Positions 4,975 to 54,700 of a stretch of 64,000 bases of DNA are shown here, piece by piece (position 1 is the first letter of the stretch; each line of letters begins with the position of its first letter). The notes beneath the pieces are model-generated. The model was not told where the DNA came from. It saw only the letters and a program-made list of their open reading frames with translations, and made no database searches. Position numbers and translations under genes: made by a program. Source of the stretch: Escherichia coli (GTDB taxonomy: Bacteria; Pseudomonadota; Gammaproteobacteria; Enterobacterales; Enterobacteriaceae); assembly GCF_003018255.1 (NCBI RefSeq), contig NZ_CP027440.1. One strand, given 5' to 3'.

Positions 4975-5605
4975 AGGTGAGGCTGTGTTTGTTGTGTTCG
5001 TTGCCGTTTTTTGCCTGATGCGACGCTAACGCGTCTTATCAGACCTACAAGTCCCGAGCACAGAACCGTAGGCCGGATAAGGCGTTCACGCCGCATCCGG
5101 CATTCAGTGCCTGATGCGACGCTGACGCGTCTTATCAGGCCTACAAGATCCGAGCACAGAACCGTAGGACGGATAAGGCGTTCACGCCGCATCCGGCATT
5201 CAGTGCCTGATGCGACGCTGACGCGTCTTATCAGGCCTACAAGATCCGAGCACAGAACCGTAGGACGGATAAGGCGTTCACGCCGCATCCGGCATTCAGT
5301 GCCTGATGCGACGCTGACGCGTCTTATCAGGCCTACAAGACCCGAGCACAGAGCCGTAGGACGGATAAGGCGTTTTACGCCGCATCCGGCATTCAGTGCC
5401 TGATGCGACGCTGACGCGTCTTATCAGGCCTACAAGATCCGAGCACAGAACCGTAGGCCGGATAAGGCGTTCACGCCGCATCCGGCATTCAGTGCCTGAT
5501 GCGACGCTGGCGCGTCTTATCAGGCCTACAAGATCCAAGCCCAGCCCCCCAGGACGGATAAGGCGTTTTACGCCGCATCCGGCAACCGTTGCCGGAACCG
5601 AAAAC
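4975..5605. repeat. REP/BIME array, about six tandem ~98-bp units of paired inverted REP elements
   Basis: Motif gcctgatgcgacgctgacgcgtcttatcaggcctacaag...ggataaggcgttcacgccgcatccggc recurs at ~5004, 5110, 5208, 5300, 5398, 5494. Confidence 0.9.
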
Positions 5606-9911: not shown

Positions 9912-9999
9912 ATCGTTACCCTTTTTCAGGCAATAGTTGGCCCTGACCGAAGCGGCCAATTTTGTTTTTGTCGTTATTTACATCGCGGTTTCGCATTCA

Positions 10000-24527: not shown

Positions 24528-24539
24528 CACGCTACCGCC
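24528..24539 (-). promoter_or_regulatory. ops element (GGCGGTAGCGTG) within the JUMPstart sequence of the cps leader; RfaH-dependent antitermination site
   Basis: Plus strand reads cacgctaccgcc, the reverse complement of the ops consensus, about 180 nt upstream of wza start in the long leader. Confidence 0.8.
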
Positions 24540-24787
24540 CCTGGCTTTTTAGCTACCAATACACTGATTTAGCTTAATTTTTAAAACCCTCTCAACATAC
24601 AGTCGTTGATGAGAAAGGGTTATTGCGGAAATTAACTTCCGAATATAAGGTGACATTATGGTAATTGAATATTGGCTCTCCAATAATGCAGGAGGAAGTG
24701 TTACAGCTAACGGAATAGCAGGCAAGGTAACAATTCGGCAATTGGCTATTTTTAAGAATTATATTAAGTGTCATTCAATATGGTTTT

Positions 24788-26628: not shown

Positions 26629-26665
26629 ATTTATACAAAATTTAGTATAATCTAAGGATGGAGTA

Positions 26666-27004
26666 ATGAGAAAAAAGCTGGCTTTTCTTGATACCAGTCT
26701 TGACGATTTACGCGCATTTCCAGAATCGTCTCGACAGGAAATTGGCTATCAACTCGACAGGATCCAACAAGGGTTAAACCCATACGACTGGAAACCTTTT
26801 TCAACTATCGGCCCTGGTGTGCGAGAGATTCGTACTCGCGATGCTGATGGGATCTATCGCGTCATGTATGTCGCAAAATTTGAAGAAGCGGTTTACGTAT
26901 TGCATTGTTTTCAAAAGAAAACACAGACTACCAGTCAATCGAATATTGATTTAGCCAAACGACGCTATAAAGAACTTGTTCAGGAGCGGAAAAATGAAAA
27001 TTGA
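26666..27004 (+). CDS. putative type II toxin, RelE/ParE superfamily (phage Gp49/HigB-like)
   Basis: 112 aa ORF with SD (ggag) and an upstream perfect TATAAT at 26646-26651; small basic protein; overlaps the downstream HTH gene by 11 bp; family assignment from recalled sequence similarity only. Confidence 0.6.
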   Translation: MRKKLAFLDTSLDDLRAFPESSRQEIGYQLDRIQQGLNPYDWKPFSTIGPGVREIRTRDADGIYRVMYVAKFEEAVYVLHCFQKKTQTTSQSNIDLAKRRYKELVQERKNEN

Positions 27005-27284
27005 AACCTTTGATAGTGTGTGGGATGCGGTGAGTGACACCCCTGAACAAGCGGAAAATATGCGGATCCGTGCCGAACTTGTTACGATCATTAATAACTG
27101 GATTGAACAACAAGGGTTTAGCCAGGCTCAGGCAGCGTCTGCTTTAGGGGTCACTCAACCTCGCATATCTGAACTTGCCAGAGGTAAGATCCAGATCTTT
27201 AGTATCGATAAATTGATCACCATGATGGCTCATGCAGGATTGCATATTCAACGTATTGAAGTTCAATATCCACATGCTGCTTAG
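26994..27284 (+). CDS. putative antitoxin, HTH XRE-family DNA-binding protein (HigA-like)
   Basis: 96 aa from ATG 26994 (MKIETFDSVWDAV...), preceded by AGGAG; HTH-like segment FSQAQAASALGVTQPRISELARGK; alternative in-frame start at 26976. Confidence 0.6.
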   Translation: MKIETFDSVWDAVSDTPEQAENMRIRAELVTIINNWIEQQGFSQAQAASALGVTQPRISELARGKIQIFSIDKLITMMAHAGLHIQRIEVQYPHAA

Positions 27285-36604: not shown

Positions 36605-36616
36605 TTGAAAACTGGC

Positions 36617-38566
36617 TCAGCAACGGCTTAAATCAGCCTGCGCCTGAGCCAGTTTTTCTGCCGCCTGACGTAGCGGTTCCATCAACGGCATGGTCCGTGC
36701 TGGAGCATGAAGGCGGAATCGCTGCAACTCTGTCGCACCGACATTCAGCGCCGATTCCAGCCGATGTCGTTTGGCGGCCATTTTTGCCATTACCGCTTGT
36801 CTGTCTGCAGGCGTTACCGCTTCGTTCGGCCTGAACACAAAACGGCGTTCACAGCTCGCTTTCCAGTCGATAACCGCCTGGGTCAGATGATCACCAAAAC
36901 CTTTCACTTGCTTAACGCTCCGTCGGGTAACATCCGCTGCTGTTTCAATACCAAAGGACCGTAACGCCGCTTTACGCGCAGGGCCAACGCCGGGAATAGA
37001 GGCAACATCAATAAAAAATCCCTCCAGAAACTTCTGCTTCTGCCGTTCCCTTGCGGTGTCCTGAAGTGCTGCCAGATCGCGCTTTTCTTCTTCCGGTAAC
37101 CCAAGAATTTCGTCCTTCATTTTTTCGAGCATCGTCCGTTTGGCGATAAAACCTTCCAGCCCGCCCAACTGCTGGATCTGGCTGACTAAATGGTCATAGT
37201 CCATTTTCGCGCGATTAAACGCCTCACGGCGTTGCTGGATTTCTGCTTTGTACGCTTTGCTTGTCAGGCTGCCAATAATCCAGATAGCCGCCAGCACAGG
37301 AACCAAAATAATATAACGTGGTTCTGTCTGAAGGCCGCAAAGCAGCAGCGATAACGCTGACAGTGCGATCTCAATCAGAATGATGTATTCACGCCTTAAC
37401 AGGCCTAAAGGAAGCGGCCTGCCAGTCGGTTGGAAATGATCGGGTAATGGTAATTGCAATGCTGGCGGTGCTACTGACGCCATCACCATCGCCCAGACTT
37501 TCGCCAGCACAAAATCACCGCTGGTGGTAATGACCTCTTCGCCGAGATCAATAAAATAGATAACGCCTTGATTATCCAGAGCACACCACGGGCAGTCAGC
37601 CAAATGACCGGGATAAACATGCATTGCCGAAACGGTACATTTCTTTAACTGTTGGCGTAGTAAATCAAGTGCCGCTACCCACGCTTTTGCCGTCGGACGC
37701 CCGGTTGCCACGCCACTTTCCGTGAATGCCTGCTGAAACATGGCTTCAACATCGCCCGGTAACATCGACAGCGGAATAGATCGTGGCGGCGGTTTTAAAC
37801 CACGTCGCTGATTATCTGACGCGTAGGCATAACGGAAATGGGCAATATCCGTCTCCAGTGCATTACCCGCATCAGAGACAAGCGGTACACCGGAATAAGG
37901 ATGCCGCCCACCAAACAAGACGTGAAAAATCAGCAACGCAAGGCCAAAATTATCGTGATTCGCGGTGCGTTCAAAGCCGACAAATGATGGCAAGGTTTGT
38001 TGCTCTGGCGGCGTAAAATGCGACACGCCGACTTCGCATAAATGCAGCGTGCCATTGGCGTTAATCTGAAAGGAGTCGCTATCAATCAACACCACTTTGC
38101 TGTCGCGACCTACCATAAAGCTGTTCTGGTTTACGTCACCCACGACGTGCCCGTGCTCGTGAATCGTAGCAAAAGATGAAGCAATATTGCGCGCAACATA
38201 GAGTAGAAAATCCCACGCACAATGAGGGTAACGTTGACGACGATGTGCCGGGCTATAGATCATATGAATCGGTTCTTTACCAGAAACTTTTGGCATCATA
38301 AAACCGATTACTTTTCCGCCTCGTCCACCGTGAAGCGTTGCCTGCGGCCAGGCGACATAATTCAACAACTGCGCGTCAGCTGTCGCAGCCATAAAGGCAA
38401 GTTTGTCCTGTTTTAAGGCGGGTGGCGGCGTGTGATAAATCTTGGCGACGCTATCGACAAACTCCTCGATATCATAAACCGCGCCTTCACCGCCTTTGCC
38501 CAGTTCACAGCCTGGCGTAACGCACTCACCAGTAGCAGTATATAAAGTGGGTTTCATGGTAACCAC
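36617..38566 (-). CDS. yegI: protein kinase-like protein YegI
   Basis: 649 aa ORF; kinase-like catalytic stretch (HGHVVGDVNQNSFMV, LIDSDSF), central TM segment, C-terminal helix-hairpin-helix-like region; overlaps yegK by 13 bp. Confidence 0.8.
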   Translation of the reverse strand: MVTMKPTLYTATGECVTPGCELGKGGEGAVYDIEEFVDSVAKIYHTPPPALKQDKLAFMAATADAQLLNYVAWPQATLHGGRGGKVIGFMMPKVSGKEPIHMIYSPAHRRQRYPHCAWDFLLYVARNIASSFATIHEHGHVVGDVNQNSFMVGRDSKVVLIDSDSFQINANGTLHLCEVGVSHFTPPEQQTLPSFVGFERTANHDNFGLALLIFHVLFGGRHPYSGVPLVSDAGNALETDIAHFRYAYASDNQRRGLKPPPRSIPLSMLPGDVEAMFQQAFTESGVATGRPTAKAWVAALDLLRQQLKKCTVSAMHVYPGHLADCPWCALDNQGVIYFIDLGEEVITTSGDFVLAKVWAMVMASVAPPALQLPLPDHFQPTGRPLPLGLLRREYIILIEIALSALSLLLCGLQTEPRYIILVPVLAAIWIIGSLTSKAYKAEIQQRREAFNRAKMDYDHLVSQIQQLGGLEGFIAKRTMLEKMKDEILGLPEEEKRDLAALQDTARERQKQKFLEGFFIDVASIPGVGPARKAALRSFGIETAADVTRRSVKQVKGFGDHLTQAVIDWKASCERRFVFRPNEAVTPADRQAVMAKMAAKRHRLESALNVGATELQRFRLHAPARTMPLMEPLRQAAEKLAQAQADLSRC

Positions 38567-39971: not shown

Positions 39972-40152
39972 AAGAAATCCTTTCTTAGAGAATTATTGAG
40001 GCCCGGTATCATACCGACTGCAACAATGAAATAAGAGCAAACGAAGAAACTTTCAGAATTAGGCCCGGCGGCGCAGAAAATTTTGCTATTCGCCTCGCAA
40101 GAACGGAGAGCCGTCGATTGACACTAAGGGCGGAGTGACATAATTTCAGGAG

Positions 40153-40298
40153 TGAGGGTTAGGGAGAGGTTTCCCCCTCCCCCTGGTGTTCTTAGTAAGC
40201 CTGGAAGCTAATCACTAAGAGTATCACCAGTATGATGACGTGCTTCATCATAACCCTTTCCTTATTAAAAGCCCTCTTCTCCGGGAGAGGGTTTCCCG
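40153..40298 (+). ncRNA. sib: Sib antitoxin sRNA, repeat unit 1 (antisense to ibs unit 1)
   Basis: -35 TTGACA (40118-40123), 17-bp spacer, -10 TAATTT (40141-40146); ends at hairpin ccctct...agaggg plus TTTCCCGTTT; ends approximate. Confidence 0.6.
40192..40251 (-). CDS. ibs: Ibs type I toxin peptide, unit 1 (MMKHVIILVILLVISFQAY)
   Basis: 19-codon hydrophobic ORF fully antisense to Sib unit 1; matches recalled Ibs family pattern MMK...LLVISFPAY. Confidence 0.7.
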   Translation of the reverse strand: MMKHVIILVILLVISFQAY

Positions 40299-40487
40299 TT
40301 TCAGCGTCCCGCTGAAATCGTCGGCTTACCTCCTTTCGCCCTGAATGCAGTCTATCGCTAACGCGTGAACAAAATAGTTTCCTCTGTGATTATTGCGTAA
40401 CGACTCGCAAAGAATATTTGCTGGCAGGATCGCAGACTACAAAGCCTGCGGATTGACAATCTTATCGTGAAGGCATAATTTCAGGAG

Positions 40488-40628
40488 TGAGGGTAGAGCG
40501 GGGTTTCCCCCGCCCTGGTAGTCTTAGTAAGCTGGCCAGCTAATAACTAAGAGCACCACGATGATGAGTAGCTTCATCATGACCCTTTCCTTATTTAAGG
40601 CCCCTTCCTCGGGAGGGGCTTTCCCGTT
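40488..40628 (+). ncRNA. sib: Sib antitoxin sRNA, repeat unit 2
   Basis: -35 TTGACA (40453-40458), 17-bp spacer, -10 TAATTT (40476-40481); terminator gccccttcctcgggaggggc plus T-tract. Confidence 0.6.
40524..40580 (-). CDS. ibs: Ibs type I toxin peptide, unit 2 (MMKLLIIVVLLVISWPAY)
   Basis: 18-codon hydrophobic ORF antisense to Sib unit 2. Confidence 0.7.
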   Translation of the reverse strand: MMKLLIIVVLLVISWPAY

Positions 40629-40815
40629 TCAGCGTCCCGCTGAAATCGGCGGCCTACCTCCTTTCGCCATGCAAGCAGTCTATCGCTAACTTGCAGATAA
40701 AATAGTTTCACATGTGATTATTGCGTAACGTCTCGCAAAGAATATTTGCTGGCAGGATCGCAGACTACAAAGCCTGCGGATTGACAATCTAATTGTGAAG
40801 GCATACTTTCAGGAG

Positions 40816-40956
40816 TGAGGGTAGAGCGGGGTTTCCCCCGCCCTGGTAGTCTTAGTAAGCCGGGAAGCTTATGACTAAGAGCACCACGATGATGATCCAC
40901 TTCATCATGACCCTTTCCTTATTTAAGGCCCCTTCCTCGGGAGGGGCTTTCCCGTT
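40816..40956 (+). ncRNA. sib: Sib antitoxin sRNA, repeat unit 3
   Basis: -35 TTGACA (40781-40786), weaker -10 TACTTT (40804-40809); same terminator hairpin as unit 2. Confidence 0.55.
40852..40908 (-). CDS. ibs: Ibs type I toxin peptide, unit 3 (MMKWIIIVVLLVISFPAY)
   Basis: 18-codon hydrophobic ORF antisense to Sib unit 3. Confidence 0.7.
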   Translation of the reverse strand: MMKWIIIVVLLVISFPAY

Positions 40957-41143
40957 TCAGCGTCCCGCTGAAATCATCGGCTTACCTCCTTTCGCCCTGA
41001 ATGCAGTCTATCGCTGACTTGCGGATAAAATAGTTTCACATGTGATTATTGCGTGACGTCTCGCAAAGAATATTTGCTGGCAGGATCGCAGACTGCAAAG
41101 CCTGCGGATTGACAATCGGACCGTGAAGGCATACTTTCAGGAG

Positions 41144-41287
41144 TGAGGGTAGAGCGGGGTTTCCCCCGCCCTGGTAGTCTTAGTAAGCTGGGTAGCTAAC
41201 GACTAAGAGCACCACGATGATGAGTATCTTCATCATGACCCTTTCCTTATTTAAGGCCCCTTCCTCGGGAGGGGCTTGCCCGTTTCA
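41144..41287 (+). ncRNA. sib: Sib antitoxin sRNA, repeat unit 4
   Basis: -35 TTGACA (41109-41114), -10 TACTTT (41132-41137); terminator hairpin followed by an interrupted T-tract (cttgcccgtttc). Confidence 0.5.
41180..41236 (-). CDS. ibs: Ibs type I toxin peptide, unit 4 (MMKILIIVVLLVVSYPAY)
   Basis: 18-codon hydrophobic ORF antisense to Sib unit 4. Confidence 0.7.
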   Translation of the reverse strand: MMKILIIVVLLVVSYPAY

Positions 41288-41443: not shown

Positions 41444-41461
41444 TTTTTCTCCCTGATTGGC
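41444..41461 (+). promoter_or_regulatory. BaeR box upstream of mdtA
   Basis: tttttctccctgattggc matches recalled BaeR consensus TTTTTCTCCATDATTGGC at 16 of 18 positions, about 55 bp upstream of the mdtA start. Confidence 0.65.
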
Positions 41462-41514
41462 TGGCTACACTAGTATCATTCCGCGAATCGTTTCAGGAAG
41501 AGAAACTCTTAACG

Positions 41515-42762
41515 ATGAAAAGCAGTTATAAATCCCGTTGGGTAATGGTAATCGTGGTGGTTATCGCCGCCATCGCCGCATTCTGGTTCTGGCAAGGCCG
41601 CAATGACTCCCGGAGTGCAGCGCCAGGGGCGACGAAACAAGCGCAGCAATCGCCAGCGGGTGGTCGCCGTGGTATGCGTTCCGGCCCATTAGCCCCGGTT
41701 CAGGCGGCGACCGCCGTAGAACAGGCAGTTCCGCGTTACCTCACCGGGCTTGGCACCATTACCGCCGCTAATACTGTTACGGTGCGCAGCCGCGTGGACG
41801 GTCAACTGATGGCGTTGCATTTCCAGGAAGGCCAGCAGGTCAAAGCAGGCGATTTACTGGCAGAAATTGACCCCAGCCAGTTCAAAGTTGCATTAGCACA
41901 AGCCCAGGGCCAACTGGCAAAAGATAAAGCCACGCTTGCCAACGCCCGCCGTGACCTGGCGCGTTATCAACAACTGGTAAAAACCAATCTCGTATCTCGT
42001 CAGGAGCTGGATGCCCAACAGGCGCTGGTCAGTGAAACCGAAGGCACCATTAAGGCTGATGAAGCAAGCGTCGCCAGCGCGCAGCTGCAACTCGACTGGA
42101 GCCGCATCACCGCACCAGTCGATGGTCGCGTTGGTCTCAAGCAGGTTGATGTTGGTAACCAAATCTCCAGTGGTGATACCACCGGGATTGTGGTGATCAC
42201 CCAGACGCATCCTATCGATTTGCTCTTTACCCTGCCGGAAAGCGATATCGCTACCGTAGTGCAGGCGCAAAAAGCCGGAAAACCGCTGGTTGTTGAAGCC
42301 TGGGATCGCACCAATTCAAAGAAATTAAGTGAAGGCACGCTGTTAAGTCTCGATAACCAAATCGATGCCACTACCGGTACGATTAAAGTGAAAGCACGCT
42401 TCAATAATCAGGATGATGCGCTGTTTCCCAATCAGTTTGTTAACGCGCGCATGTTAGTCGACACAGAGCAAAACGCTGTGGTGATCCCAACAGCCGCCCT
42501 GCAAATGGGCAATGAAGGCCATTTTGTCTGGGTGCTGAATAGCGAAAACAAGGTCAGCAAACATCTGGTGACGCCGGGCATTCAGGACAGTCAGAAAGTG
42601 GTGATCCGCGCAGGTATTTCTGCGGGCGACCGCGTAGTGACAGACGGCATTGATCGCCTGACCGAAGGGGCGAAAGTGGAAGTAGTGGAAGCCCAGAGCG
42701 CCACCACTCCGGAAGAGAAAGCCACCAGCCGCGAATACGCGAAAAAAGGAGCACGCTCCTGA
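41515..42762 (+). CDS. mdtA: RND efflux membrane fusion protein MdtA
   Basis: ORF 41368-42762; start placed at [16 protein letters not shown] giving 415 aa. Confidence 0.9.
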
Positions 42763-45700
42763 TGCAGGTGTTACCCCCGAGCAGCACAGGCGGCCCGTCG
42801 CGCCTGTTTATTATGCGTCCTGTCGCCACCACGCTGCTGATGGTGGCGATCTTACTCGCCGGGATTATCGGTTATCGAGCCCTGCCCGTTTCGGCGCTGC
42901 CGGAAGTGGACTATCCGACCATTCAGGTAGTCACGCTCTACCCAGGTGCGAGCCCGGATGTCATGACCTCTGCCGTTACCGCGCCGCTTGAACGCCAGTT
43001 TGGGCAGATGTCTGGCCTGAAACAGATGTCGTCGCAAAGTTCCGGCGGTGCGTCAGTTATCACTTTGCAGTTCCAGCTAACATTACCGCTCGATGTCGCC
43101 GAGCAGGAAGTGCAGGCCGCGATTAACGCTGCGACCAACTTGTTGCCGAGCGATCTGCCTAACCCGCCGGTTTACAGCAAAGTGAACCCGGCAGATCCGC
43201 CGATCATGACGCTCGCTGTCACCTCAACCGCCATGCCGATGACGCAAGTGGAAGATATGGTGGAAACCCGCGTCGCGCAGAAAATCTCGCAGATTTCCGG
43301 CGTCGGCCTGGTGACACTTTCCGGCGGTCAGCGTCCGGCTGTTCGCGTCAAACTTAACGCTCAGGCGATTGCCGCCCTCGGCCTGACCAGCGAAACCGTG
43401 CGCACCGCCATTACCGGCGCTAACGTCAACTCGGCAAAAGGTAGCCTCGACGGCCCTTCTCGTGCGGTTACGCTTTCCGCTAACGACCAGATGCAATCCG
43501 CCGAAGAGTATCGCCAGCTAATCATCGCCTACCAGAACGGCGCGCCGATTCGTCTGGGCGATGTCGCAACCGTAGAGCAAGGTGCAGAAAACAGCTGGCT
43601 TGGCGCATGGGCTAACAAAGAACAGGCCATTGTGATGAATGTTCAGCGCCAGCCCGGTGCTAACATTATCTCCACCGCCGACAGCATTCGGCAGATGCTG
43701 CCACAGCTCACCGAGAGTCTGCCGAAATCGGTGAAGGTGACGGTACTTTCTGACCGTACCACCAATATTCGCGCATCCGTGGATGATACTCAGTTTGAAT
43801 TGATGATGGCTATCGCGCTGGTAGTCATGATTATCTACCTGTTTTTGCGTAATATTCCGGCGACCATCATTCCCGGCGTCGCAGTGCCGCTGTCGTTAAT
43901 CGGCACCTTCGCGGTCATGGTGTTTCTCGATTTTTCAATCAATAACCTGACGCTGATGGCGTTAACTATCGCCACCGGATTTGTGGTCGATGACGCCATC
44001 GTGGTGATCGAAAACATTTCCCGCTATATCGAAAAAGGCGAAAAACCGCTGGCGGCGGCGCTCAAAGGCGCAGGTGAAATCGGTTTTACCATTATCTCGC
44101 TGACCTTCTCGCTGATTGCAGTGCTGATCCCGCTACTGTTTATGGGCGATATCGTCGGGCGACTGTTCCGCGAATTTGCTATTACTCTGGCAGTCGCGAT
44201 TTTGATCTCAGCCGTGGTGTCGCTGACCCTGACACCGATGATGTGTGCGCGGATGCTCAGCCAGGAGTCGCTGCGTAAACAGAACCGCTTCTCCCGTGCC
44301 TCGGAAAAAATGTTCGACAGGATAATCGCCGCCTATGGTCAGGGACTTGCGAAAGTGCTGAATCATCCGTGGCTGACCTTAAGCGTGGCGCTCAGCACGC
44401 TGCTGCTTAGCGTGCTGTTGTGGGTGTTCATTCCGAAAGGTTTCTTCCCGGTACAGGACAACGGCATTATTCAGGGCACTTTGCAGGCACCGCAATCCAG
44501 CTCCTTTACCAATATGGCCCAGCGGCAACGCCAGGTCGCGGATGTGATTTTGCAAGATCCGGCGGTGCAAAGTCTGACCTCATTTGTTGGCGTTGATGGC
44601 ACTAACCCGTCGCTGAACAGTGCGCGTTTGCAGATCAACCTCAAACCGTTGGATGAACGTGATGATCGGGTGCAAAAAGTCATCGCCCGCCTGCAAACGG
44701 CGGTGGATAAAGTGCCGGGCGTCGATCTCTTCCTGCAACCAACGCAGGACCTGACCATCGATACTCAGGTCAGCCGCACCCAGTACCAGTTTACCTTGCA
44801 GGCCACGTCACTGGATGCGCTCAGTACCTGGGTGCCACAGTTGATGGAAAAACTCCAGCAACTGCCACAGCTTTCTGATGTCTCCAGCGACTGGCAGGAC
44901 AAAGGGCTGGTGGCGTATGTCAATGTTGATCGCGACAGCGCCAGCCGTCTGGGGATCAGCATGGCGGACGTCGATAACGCCCTTTACAACGCGTTTGGTC
45001 AGCGACTGATTTCCACTATTTATACTCAGGCCAACCAGTATCGCGTGGTGCTGGAGCACAACACCGAAAATACTCCTGGGCTTGCGGCGCTGGATACTAT
45101 TCGCCTGACCAGCAGCGACGGCGGCGTGGTACCGCTAAGCTCAATTGCCAAAATTGAGCAGCGTTTTGCGCCGCTTTCCATCAACCATCTGGATCAGTTC
45201 CCGGTAACGACCATCTCCTTTAACGTGCCGGATAACTATTCGCTGGGCGATGCGGTGCAGGCGATTATGGACACCGAAAAGACGCTGAATCTGCCGGTGG
45301 ATATCACCACGCAGTTCCAGGGCAGCACCCTCGCCTTCCAGTCGGCGTTGGGCAGCACTGTCTGGCTGATTGTCGCGGCGGTGGTGGCGATGTATATCGT
45401 GCTCGGCATTCTGTACGAGAGCTTTATTCACCCGATCACCATTCTCTCGACGCTACCCACCGCAGGGGTCGGCGCACTGCTGGCGTTACTGATTGCCGGT
45501 AGCGAGCTGGATGTGATTGCGATTATCGGCATTATTTTGCTGATCGGTATCGTGAAGAAGAACGCCATCATGATGATCGACTTCGCGCTGGCTGCTGAGC
45601 GCGAGCAAGGCATGTCGCCGCGCGATGCAATCTACCAGGCTTGTCTGTTGCGTTTTCGTCCGATCCTGATGACCACCCTGGCGGCTCTGCTTGGCGCGCT

Positions 45701-45884
45701 GCCGCTGATGTTGAGTACCGGGGTCGGCGCGGAACTGCGTCGTCCGTTAGGTATCGGCATGGTCGGCGGTCTGATTGTCAGCCAGGTGCTGACGCTGTTC
45801 ACCACGCCGGTGATTTATCTGCTATTCGACCGCCTGGCATTGTGGACCAAAAGCCGCTTTGCTCGTCATGAAGAGGAGGCGTAA
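42762..45884 (+). CDS. mdtB: RND efflux transporter MdtB
   Basis: 1040 aa ORF; ATG overlaps the mdtA TGA by 1 bp. Confidence 0.92.
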
Positions 45885-48800
45885 GTGAAGTTTTTTGCCC
45901 TCTTCATTTACCGCCCGGTGGCGACGATTTTACTGTCGGTCGCCATTACCCTGTGCGGCATACTGGGTTTCCGTATGCTGCCAGTCGCCCCGCTGCCGCA
46001 GGTCGATTTTCCGGTGATTATGGTCAGCGCCTCGCTGCCCGGTGCGTCACCAGAAACAATGGCGTCTTCCGTTGCCACGCCGCTGGAACGTTCGCTTGGA
46101 CGCATTGCCGGGGTCAGTGAAATGACCTCCAGCAGTTCGCTCGGCAGCACGCGCATTATTTTGCAGTTTGATTTTGACCGCGATATCAACGGCGCAGCGC
46201 GCGATGTGCAAGCGGCGATCAACGCCGCGCAAAGTTTGCTGCCCAGCGGGATGCCAAGCCGTCCGACCTATCGCAAAGCGAACCCGTCGGATGCGCCAAT
46301 TATGATCCTCACGCTGACATCCGATACTTATTCGCAGGGTGAACTGTACGATTTCGCCTCGACGCAGCTGGCTCCGACGATTTCGCAAATCGACGGTGTC
46401 GGTGATGTCGATGTTGGCGGCAGCTCACTGCCCGCCGTACGCATCGGGCTGAATCCGCAGGCGCTGTTTAATCAGGGCGTGTCGCTGGACGATGTGCGCA
46501 GCGCCATCAGCAATGCCAACGTGCGTAAGCCGCAGGGGGCGCTGGAAGATGATACCCATCGCTGGCAGATCCAGACTAACGATGAACTGAAAACCGCCGC
46601 CGAATATCAGCCGTTGATTATTCATTACAACAACGGCGGCGCGCTTCGTCTGGGCGATGTGGCGACGGTGACCGACTCGGTGCAGGATGTGCGCAACGCC
46701 GGGATGACCAACGCCAAACCGGCTATTTTGCTGATGATCCGCAAGCTGCCGGAAGCCAATATTATCCAGACGGTTGACAGCATCCGGGCAAAATTACCGG
46801 AGTTGCAGGAGACCATTCCGGCGGCGATTGATCTGCAAATTGCCCAGGATCGCTCCCCCACCATTCGCGCCTCGCTGGAGGAAGTCGAGCAAACGCTGAT
46901 TATCTCGGTGGCGCTGGTGATTCTGGTGGTCTTTTTATTCCTGCGCTCGGGTCGCGCCACTATTATTCCCGCCGTTGCGGTGCCGGTTTCGCTGATTGGT
47001 ACGTTTGCGGCGATGTACCTGTGCGGATTCAGTCTCAATAACCTTTCGTTAATGGCGCTCACCATCGCTACTGGTTTCGTGGTGGATGACGCCATCGTGG
47101 TGCTGGAAAACATTGCCCGTCACCTGGAAGCGGGGATGAAACCGCTACAGGCCGCGCTGCAAGGCACTCGCGAAGTCGGTTTTACGGTGCTGTCGATGAG
47201 TCTGTCACTGGTGGCGGTGTTTCTGCCGCTGCTGTTGATGGGCGGATTGCCGGGTCGCCTGTTACGCGAGTTTGCCGTGACGCTTTCTGTCGCCATTGGT
47301 ATTTCGCTGCTGGTTTCTCTGACGCTAACGCCAATGATGTGCGGCTGGATGCTAAAAGCCAGTAAGCCGCGCGAGCAAAAGCGACTACGTGGTTTTGGTC
47401 GCATGTTGGTAGCCCTGCAACAAGGCTATGGTAAGTCGCTGAAATGGGTGCTTAATCATACCCGTCTGGTGGGCGTGGTGCTGCTTGGCACCATTGCTTT
47501 GAATATCTGGCTGTATATCTCGATCCCGAAAACCTTCTTCCCGGAGCAGGACACCGGCGTGTTGATGGGCGGGATACAGGCGGATCAGAGTATTTCGTTT
47601 CAGGCGATGCGCGGTAAGTTGCAGGATTTTATGAAAATTATCCGTGACGATCCGGCAGTGGATAATGTCACCGGATTTACCGGCGGTTCGCGGGTGAACA
47701 GCGGGATGATGTTTATCACGCTGAAGCCACGCGGCGAACGCAGCGAAACGGCGCAGCAAATTATCGACCGTCTGCGCGTGAAGCTGGCGAAAGAACCGGG
47801 GGCGAATCTGTTCCTGATGGCGGTACAGGATATTCGCGTTGGCGGACGTCAGTCGAACGCCAGCTATCAGTACACGTTGCTGTCCGACGACCTGGCGGCA
47901 CTGCGCGAATGGGAGCCGAAAATTCGCAAAAAACTGGCGACATTGCCGGAACTGGCGGACGTGAACTCCGACCAGCAGGATAACGGCGCGGAGATGAATC
48001 TGGTTTACGACCGCGACACCATGGCACGGCTGGGAATCGACGTGCAGGCCGCCAACAGCCTGTTAAATAACGCCTTCGGTCAGCGACAAATCTCGACCAT
48101 TTACCAGCCGATGAACCAGTATAAAGTGGTGATGGAAGTGGATCCGCGCTATACCCAGGACATCAGTGCGCTGGAAAAAATGTTCGTTATCAATAACGAA
48201 GGAAAAGCGATCCCGCTGTCGTATTTCGCTAAATGGCAACCGGCGAATGCTCCGCTGTCGGTGAATCATCAGGGATTATCGGCAGCCTCGACCATCTCGT
48301 TCAACCTGCCGACCGGGAAATCGCTCTCGGACGCCAGTGCGGCGATCGATCGCGCAATGACCCAGCTTGGTGTGCCTTCGACGGTGCGCGGTAGTTTTGC
48401 CGGCACGGCGCAGGTGTTCCAGGAGACGATGAACTCGCAGGTGATCCTGATTATCGCCGCCATCGCCACGGTGTATATCGTGCTGGGTATCCTTTACGAG
48501 AGTTACGTACATCCGCTGACGATTCTCTCCACCCTGCCCTCGGCGGGCGTTGGAGCGCTGCTGGCGCTGGAGCTGTTCAATGCCCCGTTCAGCCTAATCG
48601 CCCTGATAGGGATCATGCTATTAATCGGCATCGTGAAGAAAAACGCCATTATGATGGTCGATTTTGCGCTTGAAGCCCAACGGCACGGTAACCTCACGCC
48701 GCAGGAAGCTATTTTCCAGGCCTGTCTGCTGCGTTTTCGCCCGATTATGATGACTACCCTGGCGGCGCTGTTTGGCGCGCTGCCGCTGGTATTGTCGGGC

Positions 48801-48962
48801 GGTGACGGTTCGGAGCTGCGGCAACCCCTGGGGATCACCATTGTCGGCGGTCTGGTCATGAGCCAGCTTCTGACGCTGTATACCACGCCGGTGGTGTATC
48901 TCTTTTTCGACCGTCTGCGACTGCGTTTTTCGCGTAAACCTAAACAAGCGGTAACCGAGTAA
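45885..48962 (+). CDS. mdtC: RND efflux transporter MdtC
   Basis: 1025 aa ORF, paralogous to MdtB. Confidence 0.92.
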
Positions 48963-50378
48963 ATGACAGATCTTCCCGACAGCACCCGCTGGCAATTGTG
49001 GATTGTGGCTTTCGGCTTCTTTATGCAGTCGCTGGACACCACCATCGTTAACACCGCGCTTCCCTCAATGGCGCAAAGCCTCGGGGAAAGTCCGTTGCAT
49101 ATGCACATGGTCATTGTCTCTTATGTACTGACCGTGGCGGTGATGCTGCCCGCCAGCGGCTGGCTGGCGGACAAAGTCGGCGTGCGCAATATTTTCTTTA
49201 CCGCCATCGTGCTGTTTACTCTCGGTTCACTGTTTTGCGCGCTTTCCGGCACGCTGAACGAACTGTTGCTGGCACGCGCGTTACAGGGCGTTGGCGGCGC
49301 GATGATGGTGCCGGTCGGCAGGTTGACGGTGATGAAAATCGTACCGCGCGAGCAATATATGGCGGCGATGACCTTTGTCACGCTGCCCGGTCAGATCGGG
49401 CCGCTGCTTGGCCCGGCGCTCGGCGGTCTGCTGGTGGAGTACGCATCGTGGCACTGGATCTTTTTGATCAACATTCCGGTGGGGATTATTGGCGCGATCA
49501 CCACACTGATGTTAATGCCGAACTACACCATGCAGACGCGGCGCTTTGATCTCTCCGGCTTTTTATTGCTGGCGGTTGGCATGGCGGTATTAACCCTGGC
49601 GCTGGACGGCAGTAAAGGTACAGGTTTATCGCCGCTGGCGATTGCTGGCCTGGTCGCAGTTGGCGTGGTGGCACTGGTGCTTTATCTGCTGCACGCCAGA
49701 AATAACAACTGCGCCCTGTTCAGTCTGAAACTGTTCCGTACTCGTACCTTTTCGCTGGGTCTGGCGGGGAGTTTTGCCGGACGTATCGGTAGCGGCATGT
49801 TGCCCTTTATGACGCCGGTTTTCCTACAAATTGGCCTTGGCTTCTCACCGTTTCATGCCGGACTGATGATGATCCCGATGGTGCTCGGCAGCATGGGGAT
49901 GAAGCGAATTGTGGTACAGGTAGTGAATCGCTTTGGTTATCGTCGGGTACTGGTGGCGACCACGCTGGGTCTGTCGCTGGTCACCCTGTTGTTTATGACT
50001 ACTGCTCTGCTGGGCTGGTACTACGTTTTGCCGTTCGTCCTGTTTTTACAAGGGATGGTCAACTCGACCCGTTTCTCCTCCATGAACACCCTGACGCTGA
50101 AAGATCTCCCGGACAATCTGGCGAGCAGCGGCAACAGTCTGCTGTCGATGATTATGCAATTGTCGATGAGTATCGGCGTCACTATCGCCGGGCTGTTGCT
50201 GGGACTTTTTGGTTCACAGCATGTCAGCATCGACAGCGGCACCACACAAACCGTCTTTATGTACACCTGGCTTAGCATGGCGTTGATCATCGCCCTTCCG
50301 GTGTTTGTCTTTGCCAGAGTGCCGAGCGATACGCATCAAAATGTAGCTATTTCACGGCGAAAAAGGAGCGCGCAATGA
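48963..50378 (+). CDS. mdtD: MFS transporter MdtD
   Basis: 471 aa polytopic membrane ORF. Confidence 0.9.
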
Positions 50379-51778
50379 AGTTCTGGCGACCCGGTATTAC
50401 CGGCAAACTGTTTCTGGCGATTTTCGCCACCTGCATTGTCTTGCTGATCAGTATGCACTGGGCGGTGCGTATCAGTTTTGAGCGTGGCTTTATCGATTAC
50501 ATCAAGCATGGTAATGAACAACGGCTGCAAATGCTCGGCGATGCGCTTGGTGAGCAGTACGCCCAGCACGGGAACTGGCGCTTCCTGCGTAATAACGATC
50601 GCTTTGTATTTCAGATCCTACGTTCACTGGAGCATGATAACAACGAAGATAAGCCCGGCCCCGGTATGCCACCACACGGCTGGCGCACGCAATTTTGGGT
50701 GGTTGATCAAAATAATAAAGTGCTGGTTGGCCCGCGAGCACCGGTTCCACCCGACGGCACACGGCGGCCCATTATGGTCAATGGTGCGGAAGTTGGCGCG
50801 GTGATCGCCTCCCCTGTTGAACGACTGACCCGTAATACTGATATCAATTTTGACAGACAACAGCGGCAAACCAGTTGGCTGATTGTGGCTTTATCTACCT
50901 TATTAGCGGCGCTGGCGACATTCCCACTGGCGCGCGGTTTGCTGGCTCCGGTAAAACGACTGGTGGATGGCACGCACAAACTGGCAGCGGGTGATTTCAC
51001 TACTCGCGTAGCCCCCACCAGCGAAGATGAGTTGGGCAGACTGGCAGAGGATTTCAATCAACTCGCCAGCACACTGGAGAAAAACCAGCAGATGCGCCGC
51101 GATTTTATGGCCGATATTTCTCATGAACTGCGCACGCCTTTAGCAGTACTGCGCGGCGAACTGGAAGCCATTCAGGATGGTGTGCGTAAATTCACGCCGG
51201 AGACGCTGGCTTCTTTACAGGCGGAGGTCGGTACACTGACCAAACTGGTTGACGATCTTCATCAGTTGTCGATGTCTGATGAAGGCGCTCTCGCCTATCA
51301 AAAAGCACCGGTAGATTTGATCCCACTGCTGGAAGTGGCGGGCGGCGCATTTCGCGAACGATTTGCCAGCCGTGGCCTGAAACTGCAATTTTCCCTGCCA
51401 GACAGTATTACCGTATTTGGCGATCGCGATCGTTTAATGCAGTTGTTCAATAACTTACTGGAAAACAGCCTGCGCTACACTGACAGCGGCGGCAGCCTGA
51501 AAATCTCTGCCGAGCAGCACGACAAAACGGTGCGCCTGACCTTTGCCGACAGCGCGCCGGGCGTCAGTGACGATCAGCTACAAAAATTGTTTGAACGTTT
51601 TTATCGCACCGAAGGTTCCCGCAACCGTGCCAGCGGCGGTTCCGGGCTGGGACTCGCGATTTGCCTGAACATTGTTGAAGCACATAATGGCCGCATTATT
51701 GCTGCCCATTCGCCTTTTGGCGGGGTAAGCATTACAGTAGAGTTACCGCTGGAACGGGATTTACAGAGAGAAGTATGA
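50375..51778 (+). CDS. baeS: envelope-stress sensor histidine kinase BaeS
   Basis: 467 aa ORF with HAMP region, H-box ([10 protein letters not shown]) and HATPase domain; 4-bp overlap with mdtD. Confidence 0.92.
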
Positions 51779-52497
51779 CCGAGTTACCAATCGACGAAAA
51801 CACACCGCGTATTTTGATCGTGGAAGATGAACCGAAGCTGGGACAGTTGCTCATTGATTATCTGCGTGCCGCGAGCTATGCGCCGACGCTTATCAGCCAC
51901 GGCGATCAGGTACTGCCGTATGTGCGCCAGACACCACCGGATCTGATCCTGTTGGATCTGATGCTCCCTGGCACCGATGGCCTGACGCTGTGCCGGGAAA
52001 TTCGTCGTTTTTCTGACATTCCGATCGTGATGGTGACGGCAAAAATCGAAGAGATCGACCGCCTGCTGGGGCTGGAGATTGGCGCCGATGACTACATCTG
52101 CAAGCCGTACAGCCCACGGGAAGTGGTAGCGCGTGTCAAAACCATTTTGCGCCGTTGTAAACCGCAACGCGAACTTCAGCAACAGGATGCCGAAAGCCCG
52201 TTGATGATCGACGAAGGTCGTTTTCAGGCTTCATGGCGCGGTAAAATGCTTGACCTGACGCCTGCGGAATTTCGTCTGCTGAAAACGCTCTCTCATGAAC
52301 CAGGAAAAGTGTTCTCCCGCGAGCAATTGCTCAATCATCTTTATGACGACTACCGCGTAGTAACCGACCGCACCATCGATAGCCACATTAAAAACCTGCG
52401 CCGCAAGCTGGAATCTCTCGACGCCGAACAGTCATTTATCCGTGCCGTTTACGGTGTCGGTTACCGCTGGGAAGCCGACGCCTGCCGCATCGTTTAG
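51775..52497 (+). CDS. baeR: OmpR-family response regulator BaeR
   Basis: 240 aa ORF with receiver and winged-helix domains; 4-bp overlap with baeS. Confidence 0.92.
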
Positions 52498-52687
52498 TTT
52501 TAGCGACATGACTTTGTTAGCCGGAGATGGCGTTCAGATCAGATCCGGCAACATTATCCCACGTATGGTCAGCAAACTGACATTATCTCTCCGCCCTGGC
52601 AGGCACCAGAAAATCGCTCATACTTTAATCGGTAAACAGCACCTTTAGATGCTGTTTTCGATACGCAATTTCAATCAAGGAGTCATT

Positions 52688-54583: not shown

Positions 54584-54613
54584 GCTGCATTTATTAAGGT
54601 TATCATCCGTTTC

Positions 54614-54700
54614 GCTGAAAAACATAACCCATAAAATGCTAGCTGTACCAGGAACCACCTCCTTAGCCTGTGTAATCTCCCTTACACGGGCTTATTTTTT
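54614..54700 (+). ncRNA. cyaR: CyaR (RyeE) Hfq-dependent sRNA
   Basis: 87-nt sequence gctgaaaaacataacccataaaatgctagctgtaccaggaaccacctccttagcctgtgtaatctcccttacacgggcttatttttt matches recalled CyaR, including terminator hairpin and U-tail. Confidence 0.88.
54674..54700. other. bacteriophage P2 attB core (locI), unoccupied
   Basis: Reverse complement is AAAAAATAAGCCCGTGTAAGGGAGATT, the 27-bp P2 att core as I recall it; overlaps the CyaR terminator. Confidence 0.55.

Follow-up and report, generated by a model that had tools for sequence, protein, structure and literature searches.

The mdtABCD-baeSR locus

In the window, that is, the whole 64,000-nucleotide stretch of Escherichia coli DNA that we analysed, six co-directional genes follow one another in the order mdtA-mdtB-mdtC-mdtD-baeS-baeR. 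Their products match the NCBIfam profiles for MdtA, MdtB, MdtC, MdtD, BaeS and BaeR with scores that all exceed the cut-offs (the start of mdtA is that of the RefSeq annotation):

41515..42762, + strand: mdtA, periplasmic adaptor, 415 aa (NF008589, 721 bits versus a cut-off of 391)
42762..45884, + strand: mdtB, RND permease, 1040 aa (NF007798, 2242 bits versus 1584)
45885..48962, + strand: mdtC, RND permease, 1025 aa (NF007905, 2209 bits versus 1774)
48963..50378, + strand: mdtD/iceT, MFS transporter, 471 aa (NF007799, 961 bits versus 426)
50375..51778, + strand: baeS, sensor histidine kinase, 467 aa (NF007837, 930 bits versus 603)
51775..52497, + strand: baeR, response regulator, 240 aa (NF007982, 450 bits versus 380)

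By these profile matches, the locus is the known E. coli mdtABCD-baeSR efflux and stress-sensor operon. The operon of K-12 MG1655 (b2074-b2079) has the same six genes in the same order, a BaeR box 5' of mdtA and the same five junction distances (-1, 0, 0, -4 and -4 nt), which also recur in the RefSeq annotation of a 99.7%-identical genome. The flanks are likewise those of K-12, with ibs/sib upstream and yegP downstream, although the upstream side carries four Sib/Ibs modules in the window and two in K-12. Most E. coli genomes are 95-99% identical to the lineage of the window, and only four reach 99% or more. Known RNA families gave no match in 41500-52500, and antisense open reading frames of 132-203 aa across the region, which are without a Pfam match, were taken as spurious.

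Geometry of the five junctions

The five junctions have the following features, where SD denotes a Shine-Dalgarno element:

42746..42764, + strand: mdtA/mdtB junction; SD AAGGAG at 42746-42751, TGATG at 42760-42764 (distance -1)
45873..45887, + strand: mdtB/mdtC junction; SD GAGGAGG at 45873-45879, stop TAA at 45882-45884, start GTG at 45885-45887 (0-nt spacer, same reading frame)
48960..48965, + strand: mdtC/mdtD junction; TAAATG, 0-nt spacer, without a conserved SD
50363..50378, + strand: mdtD/baeS junction; SD AAGGAG at 50363-50368, ATGA at 50375-50378 (distance -4)
51765..51778, + strand: baeS/baeR junction; purine tract AGAGAGAAG at 51765-51773, ATGA at 51775-51778 (distance -4)

The first-pass annotation had described this chain of overlaps, and direct reading of the bases bears it out. 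The mdtA stop TGA (42760-42762) and the mdtB ATG (42762-42764) have 1 nt in common, and both 4-bp ATGA overlaps, at mdtD/baeS and baeS/baeR, are as claimed. The starts of mdtC and mdtD had been placed 1 nt after the preceding gene, which is true in the sense of the next base, with zero spacer: mdtC begins with GTG rather than ATG, and the mdtC stop TAA (48960-48962) adjoins the mdtD ATG (48963-48965). That the layout is expected for this operon also holds, as K-12 has the same geometry.

Each junction taken singly is commonplace. Among unidirectional E. coli gene pairs, 707 of 2,987 (24%) lie at -8 to +6 nt (PMC10666635), and by a hand tally of the annotation tables 13 of the 37 other co-directional pairs in the window fall within this range, 7 of the 37 at 0 or below. 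For independent junctions, five tight ones in a row would have a probability of 0.24^5, or about 8e-4 per run. Such a run is uncommon, yet a few per genome are predicted, and tight junctions cluster within operons. The layout is an ordinary arrangement that is already annotated.

Conservation of distances and internal SD elements

We surveyed the junctions in 80 Enterobacteriaceae species; these are related, and the counts are not independent events. The mdtA/mdtB distance was -1 in 72 of 72 species, mdtB/mdtC was 0 in 73 of 74 (with mdtC starting at GTG in 48 and at ATG in 26) and baeS/baeR was -4 in 81 of 81. The mdtD/baeS distance was -4 in 57 species, -1 in 14 and +3 in 7, which places 78 of 80 within -4 to +3. 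The mdtC/mdtD distance varied from -4 to +56 between species, reaching +20 to +56 in some; four species with wider gaps were compared for a compensatory gain in the SD, which was better in two (gaps of 20-32 nt) and not in two (53-56 nt), too few to support such a gain. Because ATGA and TGATG are partly self-stabilising, in that one mutation hits both signals, the invariance overstates selection for coupling as such.

The 3' end of the preceding gene contains an SD, which is strong and conserved for mdtB, mdtC and baeS (-7.9, -12.0 and -7.9 kcal/mol, beyond the 5th percentile of background at -6.9). The elements of mdtD and baeR are weak (-3.1 and -4.1 kcal/mol), as is that of mdtA (-3.8 kcal/mol). 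An internal SD is common in termination-reinitiation pairs, though not obligatory. Rare codons (GGA, AGG and AGA) make up the SDs of mdtB, mdtC and baeS and the purine tract 5' of baeR; they are retained in about 85-97% of species against a usage of 1-7% elsewhere in the operon: GGA at mdtA/mdtB in 69 of 71 species (6.5% usage), AGG at mdtD/baeS in 70 of 77 (1.5%) and AGA at baeS/baeR in 66 of 80 (1.2%). The SD-forming codon GAG, at mdtB/mdtC, was kept in 73 of 73. This codon retention shows nucleotide-level selection on the internal SDs and, together with junction conservation, makes up the part of the pattern that is clearly non-random and beyond chance.

Likely translational coupling and the case for independent initiation

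The layout had been called consistent with translational coupling, which is fair: the geometry is the one that reinitiation needs, all five distances lie within the termination-reinitiation range of about -8 to +6 nt, and three of them are invariant or nearly so over 72-81 species. MdtA and MdtB, MdtB and MdtC, and BaeS and BaeR are interacting partners; MdtC and MdtD, and MdtD and BaeS, are not. Short-distance pairs are 4.5-fold enriched for subunits of heteromeric complexes (Huber et al.), and MdtB2C is a heteromeric complex (PMC4107485). Four of five native E. coli pairs at -4 were coupled, the -4 pair bioBF was not, and coupling did not survive gaps of about 20 nt (Huber et al., PMC6728339, PMC10666635). 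By analogy with the E. coli pairs coupled experimentally, the geometry of which recurs here, coupling by termination-reinitiation in the operon is likely. Among the papers listed as mentioning both mdtABCD and baeSR, none has the phrase 'translational coupling', and we found no experiment on coupling in the operon.

The alternative that survives best is that there is no functional coupling: the internal SD of each gene would recruit fresh ribosomes, co-regulation would be purely transcriptional, and the overlaps would be a side effect of a compact genome and of ATGA and TGATG being stable to mutation. The strong, conserved SDs upstream of mdtB, mdtC and baeS speak for it, as do the open start regions of baeS and baeR (median unpaired probability of 0.55-0.56 versus a background of 0.40); conserved SDs and open starts fit independent initiation equally well. 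Because both of these initiation regions are unusually open and the baeS SD is strong and conserved, baeS and baeR can probably self-initiate.

The fate of mdtD bears on the same alternative. It has been lost or degraded in three lineages, all of which retain baeS. S. arizonae breaks the chain, its baeS lying 135 nt beyond the last stop codon upstream. Intestinirhabdus alba has an in-frame mdtD remnant of 54 codons whose two ends both form ATGA overlaps; this is one case, and a remnant would be in frame by chance 1 time in 3. Erwinia is a more distant taxon without mdtD (PMC4107485); the matches listed in our BaeS protein search all have at least 77% identity. A plasmid with baeS and no more than 500 bp of the DNA upstream of it brought signalling back in a strain deleted for baeS (PMC13209484), and no promoter-like site was found on the + strand within the last 500 bp of mdtD. 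From the mdtD-less lineages and this complementation, baeS need not be coupled, and both findings, like the uncoupled bioBF, favour a general lack of coupling. Against it, mdtD and baeR have no good SD yet sit at tight junctions, that of baeR being the same in every species, the start region of mdtC is consistently structured, and most of the native overlaps tested were coupled. We consider it unlikely that coupling is absent altogether.

The promoter and the transcriptional link

Upstream of mdtA lies a BaeR site:

41444..41461, + strand: BaeR box TTTTTCTCCCTGATTGGC, in the operon promoter region upstream of mdtA

This box matches the published consensus TTTTTCTCCATDATTGGC (PMC3915751, PMC3799227) at 17 of 18 positions. 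A BaeR ChIP-exo peak has been reported upstream of mdtA only, and mdtABCD-baeSR has been treated as one operon (PMC7657598). In RNA-seq component analysis, neither mdtA nor baeR goes along with mdtB, mdtC, mdtD and baeS (PMC7657598). BaeSR dosage is linked to pump expression primarily at the level of transcription, through the single BaeR-box promoter 5' of mdtA. The first-pass annotation had held that coupling would tie sensor and regulator dosage to the pump, and this part of its claim stands less firmly: the established link is the transcriptional one, through the box and the ChIP-exo peak, and the strong baeS SD, the open baeS and baeR initiation regions, the retention of baeS in mdtD-less lineages, its complementation from a plasmid and the RNA-seq components that set mdtA and baeR apart weaken the claim further.

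Promoter-like sites occurred at chance level overall (9 found versus 8.2 expected). A candidate internal baeR promoter (TTGCCT-16-CATAAT, 51661-51688) was rejected as a conserved element, with its -10 hexamer CATAAT present in only about 22 of 81 species and CACGGC the commonest sequence at that position. A search for literature naming baeS and mdtD with 'internal promoter' gave no match.

The chain could also act on transcription through anti-polarity, whereby ribosome cover over the 11-kb mRNA blocks Rho termination before the distal baeSR, and pump-gene translation acts as the gate of the autoregulatory loop. In K-12, a Rho-dependent termination region has been assigned inside mdtA (PMC7815308 supplementary file 2), and coverage downstream of this site was 20 reads without bicyclomycin and 139 with it (a Rho score of 7.3, p = 2e-23; PMC7815308). 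The region maps to about window position 42016, but the 800-nt upstream counting window of the dataset reaches the abundant SibB RNA, which makes the exact termination site uncertain. The weak mdtA SD would suit anti-polarity, as would the I. alba remnant with its paired overlaps, although that is one case that could be in frame by chance, and S. arizonae breaks the chain. We regard anti-polarity as rather improbable.

A bolder form of this idea draws on a further element:

42786..42807, + strand: conserved hairpin ACAGGCG-N8-CGCCTGT, then TTTATTAT; mdtB codons 9-16

Synonymous sites favour pairing in this hairpin, and its folding energy is unexceptional relative to shuffles (z = -0.86). Selection might have kept the gap-free chain as a 'ribosome relay', a gate on transcription and not only a means of matching protein doses: mdtA may initiate poorly with Rho acting within the operon, the hairpin and U-rich tract 25-50 nt into mdtB may be a translation-sensitive attenuator, and unbroken ribosome cover may set how many polymerases reach baeSR. 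A relay would account for the bridging ORF of 54 codons, with ATGA at both ends, that is kept in a species lacking mdtD, but we think such a relay quite improbable.

RNA structure at the start regions

Two predicted hairpins overlap junctions. A small one at mdtA/mdtB pairs AGGAG (42747-42751) with CTCCT (42756-42760) over the mdtB SD; it was not supported as a conserved element, as 88% of cells were paired but no compensatory changes were found, and the Enterobacter and Kluyvera groups lack an intact 3' arm. The other lies at mdtB/mdtC:

45878..45915, + strand: predicted hairpin over the mdtB stop and mdtC start (MFE fold)

This hairpin, the model for which came from the window sequence itself, was paired in 92% of cells over 73 species, with one covarying pair and a covariation score equalled by slid controls. 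RNAalifold favoured structures other than these two. Of the initiation regions in the operon, that of mdtC is the most structured (median unpaired probability of 0.317 versus a background of 0.40) and the only one more structured than background, the start regions of mdtB, mdtD, baeS and baeR being average or open. At none of the five junctions did we find the start region sequestered in conserved secondary structure, covariation being absent or no higher than in controls, and no long-range structure was found. That starts are locked by pairing with upstream coding sequence until upstream ribosomes open them for new 30S subunits is highly improbable, since the two hairpins that would favour it are matched by controls or lack compensatory change, RNAalifold preferred other folds, and mdtC alone exceeds background structure.

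A probable mixed mechanism at gap-free junctions

The explanation that we favour, and consider probable, is that one BaeR-activated promoter drives the operon and that translation at its gap-free junctions is a mixture of reinitiation and SD-driven initiation. The shared promoter 5' of mdtA would mainly tie BaeS and BaeR levels to pump expression, by positive autoregulation. With no untranslated gap at any of the five junctions, a ribosome terminates 0-4 nt from the next start codon, and an SD-like element lies 5-10 nt upstream of each next start, inside the preceding gene. Termination-reinitiation would then operate, or the ribosome would help to open the start region, alongside ordinary SD-driven initiation, at a rate set for each gene.

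The strongest dependence on upstream translation is predicted at mdtB to mdtC, mdtC to mdtD and baeS to baeR. The mdtC gene has the strongest SD but the most structured start, which is usually GTG, and its product assembles with that of mdtB as MdtB2C; mdtD has no SD; and baeR has a weak SD at an invariant ATGA. With its strong SD and open start region, baeS can probably initiate independently as well.

Relation to known systems

The finding by itself matters little, since the operon, its overlaps and ATGA/TGATG coupling are all established. Its modest value is that of a natural test case that is well conserved: SD strength, start codon and local structure vary along a chain of five junctions, which connects the MdtB2C pump, a heterotrimer, with a transporter that is dispensable and a two-component system under autoregulation. 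This single transcript could serve to separate reinitiation, RNA unfolding and Rho polarity, and a possible feedback of efflux-pump gene translation on BaeSR levels would bear on envelope-stress signalling and drug tolerance.

Among coupled systems, atpHA, rplJL and infC-rpmI-rplT are the classical cases of RNA-unfolding coupling. The operon resembles them at mdtC, the start of which lies in a predicted hairpin that a terminating mdtB ribosome would open, and differs in that its other four start regions are not sequestered. Closer in geometry are hyfHI, astDB and ydbH-ynbE as well as menDH (Huber et al. 2019, 2023), which are likewise co-directional, with overlaps of -4 or -1, an SD inside the upstream gene and distances within the -8 to +6/+10 nt range that permits reinitiation. 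Coupling was measured in those pairs, whereas for the mdt/bae pairs it is predicted; the present operon also differs in having two zero-spacer in-frame stop-start junctions, one with GTG, and five junctions in a chain. In Pseudomonas putida, the short upstream ORF cbrX is coupled to the histidine-kinase gene cbrA (PMC6591292), which is reminiscent of I. alba, where the end of the 54-codon ORF and the start of baeS overlap by ATGA. Unlike cbrX, however, the I. alba ORF is a remnant of an mdtD deletion, found in one species and absent from this window.

Junction geometry

We took the five junctions of mdtABCD-baeSR (efflux pump genes followed by those for the BaeS sensor kinase and the BaeR regulator) from the raw sequence and then checked them against the ORF table; all six products (MdtA, MdtB, MdtC, MdtD, BaeS and BaeR) passed the curated NCBIfam cut-offs. 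The 1-bp TGATG overlap of mdtA with mdtB, the mdtD start immediately after mdtC and the two 4-bp ATGA overlaps described in the first-pass annotation are all present. mdtC, placed there one nucleotide after mdtB, indeed abuts it directly, and its start codon is GTG, not ATG. That the arrangement is expected for this operon also holds: RefSeq gives the same five distances for a strain of 99.7% identity and for K-12 MG1655, and 5,420 complete E. coli genomes out of 5,426 contain the 11-kb stretch. The feature begins in the promoter region (~41444) and ends with baeR (at 52497), wider than the 42755-51780 annotated previously.

Junctions in the window and their distances across species (negative, overlap in nt; 0, stop directly abutting start; positive, gap in nt)
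mdtA/mdtB: TGA 42760-42762, ATG 42762-42764; 1-nt overlap, TGATG; -1 in 72/72
mdtB/mdtC: TAA 45882-45884, GTG 45885-45887; zero spacer, common frame; 0 in 73/74, one -1
mdtC/mdtD: TAA 48960-48962, ATG 48963-48965; zero spacer; 0 (28), -4 (15), +1/+2 (22), up to +56
mdtD/baeS: ATGA 50375-50378, common to both genes; -4 (57), -1 (14), +3 (7), two outliers
baeS/baeR: ATGA 51775-51778, common to both genes; -4 in 81/81

Conservation of the chain

Each junction, taken alone, is ordinary and of a very common kind, two co-directional genes set close together. Of 2,987 unidirectional pairs in E. coli, 707 (24%) fall within -8 to +6 nt, and -4 is the distance seen most often (PMC10666635). A hand tally from the annotation tables placed 13 of the 37 other co-directional pairs within the window at -8 to +6 nt and 7 of 37 at 0 or below, many of the tight pairs being supplied by the colanic-acid cluster. 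A run of five tight junctions is uncommon, yet a few such runs are expected per genome.

The non-random component of the chain is its evolutionary conservation. With a BaeS query we collected 80 loci, each from a different species of Enterobacteriaceae; tblastn gave the positions of the six genes, from which all junction distances were calculated. Because invariant and drifting junctions occur within one species set, differential constraint is favoured over simple inertia, although ATGA and TGATG are partly self-stabilizing, since a single mutation strikes the stop and start signals together. mdtD was lost three times:

Intestinirhabdus alba, L019 9840-10004: 54-codon in-frame mdtD remnant, MdtD N-terminus fused to C-terminus; ATGA overlaps kept at both ends, with mdtC and baeS
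Pluralibacter metagenome-assembled genome, L070 4802-4942: 47-codon ORF, start 2 nt past the mdtC stop, GTGA end at baeS
S. enterica subsp. arizonae, L018 9467-10001: mdtD degraded, chain broken; 135 nt from the last upstream stop codon to baeS

Two of these three losses are bridged, which is not statistically significant.

The protein database also holds singleton ORFs of 660-713 aa in which BaeS and BaeR are fused (P0003, P0005, P0007 and P0010); each is either a genuine rare mutant or the product of a sequencing error. Inside baeS, the baeR frame stays open over >25 codons further upstream. By comparison with window 51741-51790, the P0003 fusion (...LQRSMTELP...) is accounted for by a 2-nt loss in a GAGAGA tract, and that of P0007 (E. 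marmotae) by an in-frame deletion between two GAGTTACC repeats.

Initiation signals at the junctions

The 3'-terminal codons of the preceding genes supply Shine-Dalgarno (SD) elements, made up of codons that are otherwise rare in the operon. GGA occupies codon -4 of mdtA in 69/71 species, against 6.5% of Gly codons across the operon; in mdtD, AGG stands at codon -4 or codon -3 in 70/77 (1.5% of Arg codons); codon -3 of baeS is AGA in 66/80 (1.2% of Arg codons), and codon -3 of mdtB is GAG in 73/73. By these codon counts and the energies predicted for pairing to the 16S rRNA tail, strong SDs under selection are present at three junctions and absent at two, those of mdtD and baeR.

Predicted SD energy (kcal/mol; background median -2.5, 5th percentile -6.9) and median predicted unpaired probability of positions -17 to +5 across species (background 0.40)
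mdtA: -3.8; 0.555
mdtB: -7.9; 0.45
mdtC: -12.0; 0.317
mdtD: -3.1; 0.45
baeS: -7.9; 0.55
baeR: -4.1; 0.558

Only mdtC, of the six genes, has a consistently structured start region by prediction; p-values against the background are inflated by the relatedness of the species. A predicted hairpin at 45878-45915 surrounds the mdtB stop and mdtC start, with 92% of pairing kept across 73 species, only one covarying pair and a covariation score showing no gain over slid controls. Compensatory changes in a small AGGAG/CTCCT hairpin over the mdtB SD were sought across species and none were found. As consistent structure is predicted only at mdtC and covariation there is no better than in controls, RNA unfolding is at best a local contributor at that gene.

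Proposed coupling and polarity

We consider a mixed account the best one, in which reinitiation, or ribosome-assisted opening, would act at each of the five junctions and internal SDs would adjust the translation rate gene by gene; dependence on upstream translation is predicted to be greatest for mdtC, mdtD and baeR. This account is preferred because coupling was seen in four of five native E. coli -4 overlap pairs tested, with a steep drop when the stop codon was shifted ~20 nt away and an SD contribution varying from essential to none (PMC6728339, PMC10666635), because a 2025 review finds the reinitiation and RNA-unfolding models each supported and not mutually exclusive (PMC12548453), and because heteromeric-complex subunits are 4.5-fold enriched among short-distance pairs. 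The functional pump is MdtB2C (PMC4107485). Among the papers listed as mentioning both mdtABCD and baeSR, none uses the phrase 'translational coupling'.

An anti-polarity 'ribosome relay' reading of the gap-free chain is permitted, not established, by the I. alba remnant and two further features, and we regard it as improbable. The first is a Rho-dependent termination region assigned within K-12 mdtA at coordinate 2154517 (window ~42016) by DirectRNA-seq with and without bicyclomycin (PMC7815308 supplementary file 2), where bicyclomycin raised downstream coverage from 20 to 139 reads (Rho score 7.3, p = 2e-23), with the caveat that the 800-nt upstream counting window extends into sibB (PMC7815308). 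The main text of that paper does not take up this termination region. The second is a hairpin, ACAGGCG-N8-CGCCTGT, at mdtB codons 9-16 (42786-42807), followed by TTTATTAT and kept in ~70 Enterobacteriaceae species, with T-rich codons after the stem and a tail reaching ~42816 (codons 9-17). Synonymous choices lean towards pairing (ACA encodes Thr9 in 34/71 species, 48% versus 4.4% usage; CTG encodes Leu15 in 71/71) and loop codons are free to vary. Its folding energy is unexceptional (z = -0.86), and no compensatory double changes occurred across the species compared. This element could be an attenuator or roadblock.

BaeSR dosage and pump expression

The proposal that coupling ties BaeSR dosage to the pump stands in part: the link exists, first of all by transcription. 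A BaeR box at 41444-41461 shares 17 of 18 positions with the published consensus, and a BaeR ChIP-exo peak lies upstream of mdtA, the six genes being handled as one operon (PMC7657598). Caution against strict translational linkage comes from the strong baeS SD, the predicted open start regions of baeS and baeR, and the retention of baeS in three lineages with mdtD deleted or degraded. A further caution comes from independent-component analysis of RNA-seq, in which the BaeR module comprises spy, mdtA and baeR, without mdtB, mdtC, mdtD or baeS, and baeR is additionally placed in the CpxR module (PMC7657598); this membership suggests that mRNA behaves unevenly from one part of the operon (41515-52497) to another.

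Comparison with known loci

Within the operon region no Rfam family was matched and antisense ORFs had no Pfam match; ahead of baeR lies a promoter-like site, which is not conserved across species. Elsewhere the window holds:

5071-5526: five naRNA4 repeats between wcaK and wzxC (Rfam)
9916-9965: algC RNA motif (Rfam)
24528-24566: JUMPstart element upstream of wza (Rfam)
~26665-27283: RelE/ParE-family toxin gene and helix-turn-helix gene, 11-nt overlap, between yegH and asmA (near-identical reference genome)
~36616-38557: yegI (protein kinase gene), which in the 99.7%-identical reference genome bears a frameshift annotation
40118-41251: four tandem Sib antitoxin RNA/Ibs toxin modules upstream of mdtA
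54612-54697: CyaR sRNA downstream of trhP (Rfam)

K-12 has two Sib/Ibs modules (sibA and sibB) at the same locus, versus four here. The junction chain is real, conserved, mechanistically sensible and already known: K-12 MG1655 carries the same annotated operon with the same annotated overlaps.
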